64,000 nucleotides of DNA from Chitinilyticum piscinae. GTDB taxonomy: Bacteria; Pseudomonadota; Gammaproteobacteria; Burkholderiales; Chitinibacteraceae. A program made the position numbers and the translations under genes. Under the pieces are notes generated by a model. The model worked only from the letters and a program-made list of their open reading frames with translations. It was not told where the DNA came from and did no database searches. Positions 30,401-33,251 of the stretch are shown here, piece after piece; position 1 is the stretch's first letter, and each line of letters starts with the position of its first letter. Where the stretch lies: positions 575,858-639,857 of the forward strand of contig NZ_JADFUA010000001.1 in the NCBI RefSeq assembly GCF_015223195.1. Reading direction: 5' to 3'.

Positions 30401-30749
30401 GGGTATATCCCCAAAAGTCATTTGAATAAATGGCTGCATGGTAATACCCATGCAACTGGCTGGCCAAACATGGTGCGCGGCTGATCCCGCTGCGGGCAGG
30501 ATCAGTGCCGCGGCTCTTGCTGCCGCAACCGGAAAACCGCTCAGCATTCCGGAAAATTGCTGATCCGGCGGGTTTATCCCGCCAACCCTTCCAGAAAACT
30601 TGAAAGTGCTTCAAGAAAGCTCTGTGACAGGCCTGCGGGTCATGCGCCTAAGATGAGCTTGTCTTCCCGAGAGGAAGCGGCGCGAGCCACCTGCCAGTTC
30701 TTGGGCAGACTGGCCGCACCCCTGACAAGCATATCAAGAGGGTTCGGAG

Positions 30750-33251
30750 ATGAATGATCTGTTGCAGCCACTGTTCGACCACGCCGGCATGCTGGCTATC
30801 GGCGCGGTGTTGATTGTTTTGCTGGTGAATTCCATCGTCATTGTTGGCGGTGAAGAAATGGCGCTGCTGGAACGCCGCTGGCTGGGGCGCAAGATGCCGC
30901 AGGGGCGGGTGGTGGCGCAGCCCGGTGAGGTGGGGATCCAGGCGCGCACACTCGGGCCGGGACTGCACCTGCTGATTCCCTTCCTGTTCAAGGCGACCAA
31001 GATTCCCTTCGTTACGATTGCCGATGCCGAAATCGGCCTGGTTGAATCCATCGACGGGCATGCGGTATTGCCGGGCAAGATCTTTGCCGAGCCGGTCGAC
31101 GGGCACAACTCCTTCCAGGATGCCGAAGCCTTCCTGCGCAATGGCGGCCAGAAAGGCCCGCAGGTAGCGGTGCTGCCACCGGGGAAATACCGTATCAACC
31201 CGTATCTGTTCCGTGTGGACAAGGCCGCGATGATCACCATCCGCGACCATGAAATCGGTATTGTCGAGGCGACCGATGGCGACCCGATTCCGGCCGGCCG
31301 AATCTTTGCCCGCACGGTGGCCGGCCATCAGGCATTCCAGGACGGCGCCGGGTTTCTGCGCAACGGCGGGCAGAAAGGTCCGCAGATCGACGTGATCCCG
31401 CCGGGGAATTACCGGATCAACCCGCTGCTGTTCAAGGTAAGCAAGAGCGCGGCGGTCAGCATTCCCGAAGACAGCATCGGCCTGATCGAAGCCACGGATG
31501 GCGAGCCGATTCCGGCCGGGCGCATCTTTGCGCGGGTGGTGAAAGGCCATGATGCCTATCAGTCCGGGCAGGCCTTTATCGACAATGGTGGGCAGAAGGG
31601 CCCGCAGATCGATGTGCTGCCTCCGGGGCTGTACCGGATTCACCCGAATCTGTTCAAGCTGCAGATTGTGCCGGCCATCGTGATCGAGAAGGGCGCGGTC
31701 GGGGTGGTGCTGGCACAGGATGGTCTGCCGATTCCGACCGGGCGTCTGCTCGCGCACCGCGTCAGCGGCCATGACAACTTCGAGAATGGCGAGGCCTTCC
31801 TCAACCAGGGCGGGCAGAAAGGGCCGCAGATCGATGTGCTGCTGCCGGGTACTTACCGGATCAATACCGCACTCTTTGCCGTTCGCACCGCGCCGGCCAC
31901 GGTGGTCGAGGCCAATCACGTCGGGCTGGTGACCGCGCTGGACGGTATCCCGCTGCCGGAAAACGAATACGTGGCACGGCAGGTGGGCGGCCATGACGAC
32001 TACCAGAACGGCTCGGCCTTCCTGACCCAGGAAGGCCAGCGTGGCCCGCAGCTGGACGTGCTGCGCCCCGGGACGTATTACATCAACCCGCTGCTGTTTA
32101 CCGTCGAACTGGACAAGGTGGCCGTCATCGAGCGCGGTCAGGTCGGTGTAGTCGTGTCCAACGTCGGGGAGGCCCCGCCCGAGGAAATGATCCGCCGTCT
32201 GTCCGCCACGCAGGGCTCGACACAGGAAGCCGGGCAGGAACGCTATGTGGTGCCCAAGGGCTTCCGCGGGATTCAGGAGGAAGTCGCCGGCCCCGGCAGC
32301 TATTACCTGAATCGTCGCGCCTTCATGGCCTACATCATCGATACGACCAACATCACCATCGACTGGGACGAGCAGGCCGATACCCGCTTTGACGAACTGA
32401 CGGTGATTTCCAAGGATGGCTTCCCCATCCAGGTCTCGGTCAAGGTGGTCATTCGCGTGCGGCCCGATCAGGCGCCCTATATGGTCGCCAAGGTCGGCTC
32501 GGTCGATAACCTGATCCAGCACGTCATCCATCCGATGATCGACTCTTCCTTCCGCAACCAGGCCTCCACGGCCTCGGCGATGGATTTCCTGCAAAGCCGC
32601 TCGGAAGAACAGGCCAAGGCCGAAGCGCGCGTGCGCGCCGATCTGGAGAAATACCACGTCGAATGCGTCTCGGTGCTGATCTGCCAGATCAAGCTGCCTG
32701 CCGAACTGATGGAAACGCAGACCAAGCGCATCATCGCCGAGCAGCAGCTGGAGATGTACAAGATGGAGCAGCGCTCGCAGGTGGAACGCACGCAGATGGA
32801 AAAAATGCGCGCCACCGCCGACCAGCAGCCTGTGCTGGTGGCTTCGGAAATTGCCGTGCAGGTGGCCCAGCAGAAAAAGAGCGAGATGGTGACGCTGGCC
32901 GAAGGCGAGGCCCGTTCCAAGGCGCTCGACGGCGAGGGGGAAGGCAACCGGCTGCGGCTGATCGGTGACGGCGAGGCGGCCAAGATCTCCGCCATCGGTG
33001 AAGCCACCGCGCTGGCCTACCAGAAGCAGACCGAAGCGCTGGGCGAGGATGCCATCCGCTCGATCAAGCTGGTCGAACTGATTTCGGGGGCCATCGAACG
33101 CGGCCAGCTCAAGATTGTTCCCGATGTCATGGTCTCGGGCAGCGGAGCCAGCGAAGGCTTCATGGCCCAGCTGGCCCGCCTGCTCCCCGGCATGGACCTG
33201 GGCCAGCTGCTGGCGCGCGGCAAACCCGATGTGCTGCCGCCACCGCAATAA
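30750..33251 (+). CDS. flotillin/SPFH (band-7) family protein with an expanded N-terminal region of five to six ~75-aa tandem repeats
   Basis: 833 aa. TM helix LAIGAVLIVLLVNSIVIV. SPFH beginning VVAQPGEVGIQARTLGPGLHLLIPF. Five near-identical units (...IG.VEA.DG.PIP.GRIFAR.V.GH..FQ.G.AFL.NGGQKGPQIDV.PPG.YRINP.LFKV) plus a degenerate sixth. Flotillin-type Glu/Ala/Gln-rich coiled-coil C-terminus (EQQLEMYKMEQRSQVERTQMEKMRATADQQ). Confidence 0.8.
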   Translation: MNDLLQPLFDHAGMLAIGAVLIVLLVNSIVIVGGEEMALLERRWLGRKMPQGRVVAQPGEVGIQARTLGPGLHLLIPFLFKATKIPFVTIADAEIGLVESIDGHAVLPGKIFAEPVDGHNSFQDAEAFLRNGGQKGPQVAVLPPGKYRINPYLFRVDKAAMITIRDHEIGIVEATDGDPIPAGRIFARTVAGHQAFQDGAGFLRNGGQKGPQIDVIPPGNYRINPLLFKVSKSAAVSIPEDSIGLIEATDGEPIPAGRIFARVVKGHDAYQSGQAFIDNGGQKGPQIDVLPPGLYRIHPNLFKLQIVPAIVIEKGAVGVVLAQDGLPIPTGRLLAHRVSGHDNFENGEAFLNQGGQKGPQIDVLLPGTYRINTALFAVRTAPATVVEANHVGLVTALDGIPLPENEYVARQVGGHDDYQNGSAFLTQEGQRGPQLDVLRPGTYYINPLLFTVELDKVAVIERGQVGVVVSNVGEAPPEEMIRRLSATQGSTQEAGQERYVVPKGFRGIQEEVAGPGSYYLNRRAFMAYIIDTTNITIDWDEQADTRFDELTVISKDGFPIQVSVKVVIRVRPDQAPYMVAKVGSVDNLIQHVIHPMIDSSFRNQASTASAMDFLQSRSEEQAKAEARVRADLEKYHVECVSVLICQIKLPAELMETQTKRIIAEQQLEMYKMEQRSQVERTQMEKMRATADQQPVLVASEIAVQVAQQKKSEMVTLAEGEARSKALDGEGEGNRLRLIGDGEAAKISAIGEATALAYQKQTEALGEDAIRSIKLVELISGAIERGQLKIVPDVMVSGSGASEGFMAQLARLLPGMDLGQLLARGKPDVLPPPQ

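Follow-up and report, generated by a model that had tools for sequence, protein, structure and literature searches.

A bacterial SPFH/Band 7 protein with tandemly amplified SPFH1 domains and a domain layout like that of the eukaryotic major vault protein

The SPFH cages (HflK/C, prohibitin, flotillin, stomatin and erlin) and the vault are now regarded as one architectural superfamily. To our knowledge, all structurally solved SPFH proteins oligomerise side by side, and the examples known to us lie at two extremes: at one, membrane domes with a single SPFH1 per subunit, and at the other the free vault of eukaryotes, whose subunit, the major vault protein (MVP), has nine. MVP repeats R1-R9 have been described as SPFH1 homologs and the MVP shoulder as SPFH2 (PMC12915596), and ECOD assigns to the MVP-repeat homology group the domain found at the N-terminus of archaeal Band-7 proteins (PMC13607799). 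Prokaryotic MVP-like proteins are on record (PMC3762200, PMC12962969), with repeat numbers that vary from one in most archaea to five in a Lokiarchaeial protein; the published bacterial MVP homologs were identified through their BLAST matches to MVP, at ∼25-54% identity, and some of them are annotated as MVP.

The 64,000-nucleotide window of the Chitinilyticum piscinae genome analysed here contains a complete gene (30750..33251, forward strand, as are all features described below; from the list of open reading frames) for an 833-residue SPFH/Band 7 protein with tandem SPFH1-like repeats. A Shine-Dalgarno-like AAGAGGG, read from the sequence at 30736..30742, has the ATG at 30750 lying 7 nt downstream, which favours this start over the M14 start of the identical protein on deposit, as hypothetical, from Chitinilyticum litopenaei. 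More than 7,496 homologs were found. The gene lies downstream of EmrA/EmrB-like efflux genes and upstream of a gene for an unknown lipoprotein, and there is no conserved gene neighbourhood that would hint at a client or function, with no neighbour family present in more than 6 of 83 loci.

The internal tandem repeats are real. A BLOSUM62 scan of self-diagonals gives a score of 995 at an offset of 74 aa, placing aa 59-404 onto 133-478, with further scores of 666, 422, 199 and 60 at offsets of 148, 222, 296 and 370; the maximum among 20 shuffles was 41, so that the 74-aa periodicity is far above chance. Repetition was thus correctly recognised in the original prediction, but its period is 74 aa and 222 nt rather than ∼75 aa and ∼225 bp. 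In-frame autocorrelation of the DNA reaches 0.57 at lag 222, compared with 0.30 +/- 0.03 in the background, and identity between units is 54-68% (46% at third codon positions). This divergence of the units is too great for Tandem Repeats Finder, which reported no repeat in the region. A blastp self-comparison of the protein yielded the identity match alone, without the internal repeats. A 30-mer that had been put forward as recurring is exact only at 31365; the copy at 31143 has 6 differing bases, that at 31587 has 4 and that at 31809 has 2.

We delimited the units with a profile built exclusively from those of other proteins, with none taken from the 833-aa protein itself. Five canonical copies were found, at aa 86-158, 161-232, 235-306, 308-380 and 382-454, each with an E value of about 1e-31, corresponding to the 74-aa units R1 (aa 86-159, 31005..31226, E 3e-32), R2 (aa 160-233, 31227..31448, E 2e-32), R3 (aa 234-307, 31449..31670, E 5e-31), R4 (aa 308-381, 31671..31892) and R5 (aa 382-455, 31893..32114). 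They are followed by a degenerate sixth copy at aa 457-525 (E 9e-12), and five canonical units plus a degenerate sixth ahead of the SPFH core, with long helices behind it, is the arrangement that had been predicted. The N-terminal segment containing PGLHLLIPF had been taken for the normal start of an SPFH domain, and it turns out to be a shortened copy of the repeat unit itself: R0 (aa 36-85, 30855..31004), which is supported by the self-alignment and the unit profile (C-terminal half of the truncated unit, aa 57-83, E 2e-3) and does not have the loop/helix insert of the canonical units.

The sixth copy, R6 (aa 456-535, 32115..32354), is the SPFH domain's own SPFH1, homologous to the repeat unit although its helical insert is longer. 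The repeats were first described as inserted into the SPFH domain, yet they are no foreign insertion: judged by the profile match to R6 (E 9e-12), the units are tandem duplicates of the protein's own N-terminal SPFH beta-subdomain, and the repeat arose by tandem amplification of SPFH1. The chain therefore runs from a transmembrane anchor through seven SPFH1-like beta-domains (one short, five canonical and one with a long insert) to the SPFH2 alpha/beta core, or shoulder (aa 536-650, 32355..32699), about 130 helical residues and a tail. The helical region (aa 651-783, 32700..33098; AF2 helices at 651-690, 694-725 and 732-783) is the equivalent of the SPFH coiled-coil or the MVP cap-helix, and the C-terminal tail (aa 784-833, 33099..33248), modelled with an AF2 pLDDT below 50, is possibly a cap-closing element by analogy with the vault. 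The repeat unit has no Pfam or NCBIfam model, and single units yield only chance-level matches; as a result, thousands of proteins carry only a 'Band 7' or 'hypothetical' annotation. Among solved structures the unit profile gave only chance matches (E ∼1), and a sequence search with the whole protein gave no match at E ≤0.01.

Membership of the SPFH/Band 7 proteins, as originally proposed, is borne out by a match to Pfam PF01145 Band_7 (clan CL0433) at aa 499-677, scoring 92 bits against a cut-off of 23.6, and by the alpha/beta SPFH fold, the N-terminal membrane attachment (transmembrane segment aa 14-34) and the helices after the core (aa 651-783). The more specific assignment to the flotillin/YqiK type is not supported, since Band_7 is the only Pfam match at E values up to 1 and no flotillin-specific model is found; a family profile searched against solved structures finds QmcA (3e-6), prohibitin-2 (5e-5) and HflC (1e-3), but flotillin-1 only at E 4.5, and no NfeD/YqiJ-type partner gene is found adjacent. 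We consider it unlikely that the protein is an ordinary flotillin/YqiK-type microdomain scaffold, in which the repeats would hold a normal-sized SPFH ring off the membrane as a spacer or stalk, or serve as an additional oligomerisation or client-binding module, and would form no closed wall. Some sources do label homologs COG2268 'YqiK', the Band_7 core is followed by long helices, and the geometry between units across the seven tiers is not confidently modelled (full-length pLDDT 52.8), all of which would accord with such a scaffold. SO1377/COG2268 itself was considered as a member of the family, but according to the literature it is a YqiK ortholog of the canonical kind, 592 aa long and with DUF1449 as its partner, and thus belongs to a different family. 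HflK/HflC identity was likewise rejected: the NCBIfam HflC models, which have cut-offs of 134 and 427, gave scores of 17-18 bits. QmcA, HflK/C, prohibitin, stomatin, erlin and flotillin have one SPFH1 each, whereas the 833-aa protein has seven in tandem, and, unlike the classical SPFH cages, its locus has neither an NfeD partner nor a gene for an FtsH-type client close by.

The repeat unit is present in 1,226 protein clusters (50% identity), and where a core is detectable the units are N-terminal to it in all representatives (84/84). Comparison of repeat number, which had been suggested as a check, shows that it varies from 2 to 13 canonical copies per complete protein across the wider family, with five in the Chitinilyticum piscinae protein, and this range marks a genuine duplication series. 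The close orthologs all carry the same five positionally orthologous units, and the duplications are consequently ancient and not peculiar to this genome. The alternative that would have spoken against the original observation, in which every family member shares the units as a standard domain with no duplication, thus holds for the close orthologs in so far as the five units are shared, but not for the wider family. R5 is kept in all relatives, R4 in all three-, four- and five-copy relatives, and arrays grow by addition of R1-type units at the membrane-proximal end. Orthologs labelled as belonging to different phyla are 84-92% identical with synonymous sites near saturation, an identity that we would expect if the protein surfaces are mostly assembly contacts.

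The sole transmembrane anchor (aa 14-34, 30789..30851; Kyte-Doolittle mean 2.9) is the only hydrophobic segment of the protein; AF2 places a helix at aa 12-28 in this region, and an N-terminal anchor is conserved in 115/115 homologs examined. Lysine and arginine across these 115 homologs average 0.28 on the N-side of the transmembrane segment versus 3.9 on the C-side, from which an N-out/C-in topology is predicted; everything after the anchor would then be cytoplasmic. This bears on the notion that the repeats form an extracytoplasmic beta-stalk of the adhesin type, in the periplasm or at the cell surface, to which multi-copy relatives lend something through weak matches to the Pfam CshA_repeat model, no single stretch of which is significant alone. 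Single units match CshA at chance level only, however; the protein lacks a signal peptide, most of it is cytoplasmic by the positive-inside rule, and the SPFH core and helices always come after the repeats, which makes such a stalk very unlikely.

A full-length AF2 model (pLDDT 52.8) served as a lead only and was superseded by a model of the fragment aa 308-690, built from a more diverse alignment (pLDDT 91.5, pTM 0.76), in which R4 and R5 are modelled with pLDDT above 90 and the first helix of the 651-783 region is confident. Each unit in the fragment model consists of five strands and a short helix, and the modelled repeats show an MVP-repeat-like fold. With the full-length model, for all its low pLDDT of 52.8, MVP accounts for every one of the top 11 Foldseek matches in the PDB (E 1e-15 to 5e-10), and MVP R1-R7 fragments match it at 3e-8. 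Foldseek coverage is 450-530 columns for MVP compared with only 210-250 for SPFH proteins. The domain grammar is also that of MVP, with repeats leading to shoulder, cap-helix and cap, so that the tandem MVP-repeat-fold domains, SPFH-fold shoulder and long cap helix of the MVP family are all present.

There are also differences from MVP. MVP (PDB 4HL8, 9BW5 and 9Z4W; R1-R7, 3GF5) is eukaryotic and has a free waist end where this bacterial protein has its transmembrane anchor, and it has nine beta-domains rather than seven; its repeats are ∼55 aa long, whereas the bacterial units are 74 aa and carry a conserved FQ.G..FL.NGGQKGPQ loop/helix insert that is absent from the MVP repeats. Loop residues that are invariant in the unit are the D/G of 'DG', F43, G48, G51, Q53, G60 and N65. 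The Pfam models Vault (PF01505) and MVP_shoulder (PF11978) match neither the query, nor seven relatives, nor 89 single units; hhalign against rat MVP is not significant (probability 1.5% for the family alignment and 0.4% for the unit profile), no significant link to MVP emerges from hmmsearch with filters off, and MVP is not found by the family profile among PDB sequences. MVP-repeat-fold domains, an SPFH shoulder and a helical tail are likewise combined in archaeal/Asgard MVP-like Band-7 proteins (PMC13607799; PMC12962969) and in putative MVP homologs of Myxococcales, Cytophagales and cyanobacteria (PMC3762200; bioRxiv 10.1101/872010). Published Asgard and bacterial examples include A9AUD4, H8MNI3 and H6L4P8. 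The present family differs from the published bacterial MVP homologs, in a comparison by description only, in its lack of MVP similarity and its annotation as Band_7/SPFH or hypothetical.

True orthology of the protein to MVP, or a place as its direct ancestor, with free closed vault particles as the product, is very unlikely, notwithstanding the MVP-like domain order, the top structural match of the full-length chain to MVP and the existing reports of prokaryotic MVP-like proteins (PMC3762200, PMC12962969). The profile results, the longer units with their insert and the N-terminal anchor of all 115 homologs examined speak against it, the last being at odds with a soluble particle in which repeats pair the half-shells. 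Moreover, the units are nearest in sequence to the protein's own SPFH1, which argues for amplification within its own lineage.

The domain layout that the protein shares with the eukaryotic major vault protein suggests an unusually tall cage on the cytoplasm-facing side of the cell membrane. We regard it as probably a single-pass inner-membrane SPFH protein with amplified SPFH1, forming a dome with a stacked-repeat wall on the cytoplasmic face, the N-terminal anchor standing in place of the vault waist. Chains would assemble laterally, in keeping with all solved SPFH proteins, to give a closed dome, and the stacked tiers of repeats would rise from the membrane to the SPFH2 ring as a tall, barrel-shaped wall, in effect a 'half vault' seated on the membrane. 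The number of repeats, 2-13 across the family and five in this protein, would determine the height and volume of the enclosed patch of membrane. The earlier idea that the repeats lengthen the reach of an SPFH cage fits the structural evidence. The oligomerisation into a cage, for which we argue by analogy, the building of its wall from the repeats and any role in physiology are what we infer. It is a more tentative proposition, and one we hold somewhat doubtful, that a widespread bacterial family builds such half-vault cages with repeat number setting their height, as an independent prokaryotic vault architecture; if true, it would provide an experimentally tractable model of how vaults arise from SPFH cages.

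A membrane-anchored family with 2-13 tandem SPFH1 domains bridges the one-SPFH1 domes and the nine-SPFH1 vault, and the descent of the repeat from its own SPFH1 is still readable in the sequence. Should the protein assemble as predicted, it would offer a bacterial system for testing how tiers of repeats build a vault-type wall, together with a natural series linking repeat number to compartment size, and a case of parallel evolution, or of ancestry, that bears on the origin and function of the vault. PADLOC defence-system models give no match to the 833-aa protein. In some members of the family the far end bears a VWA or CHAT domain.

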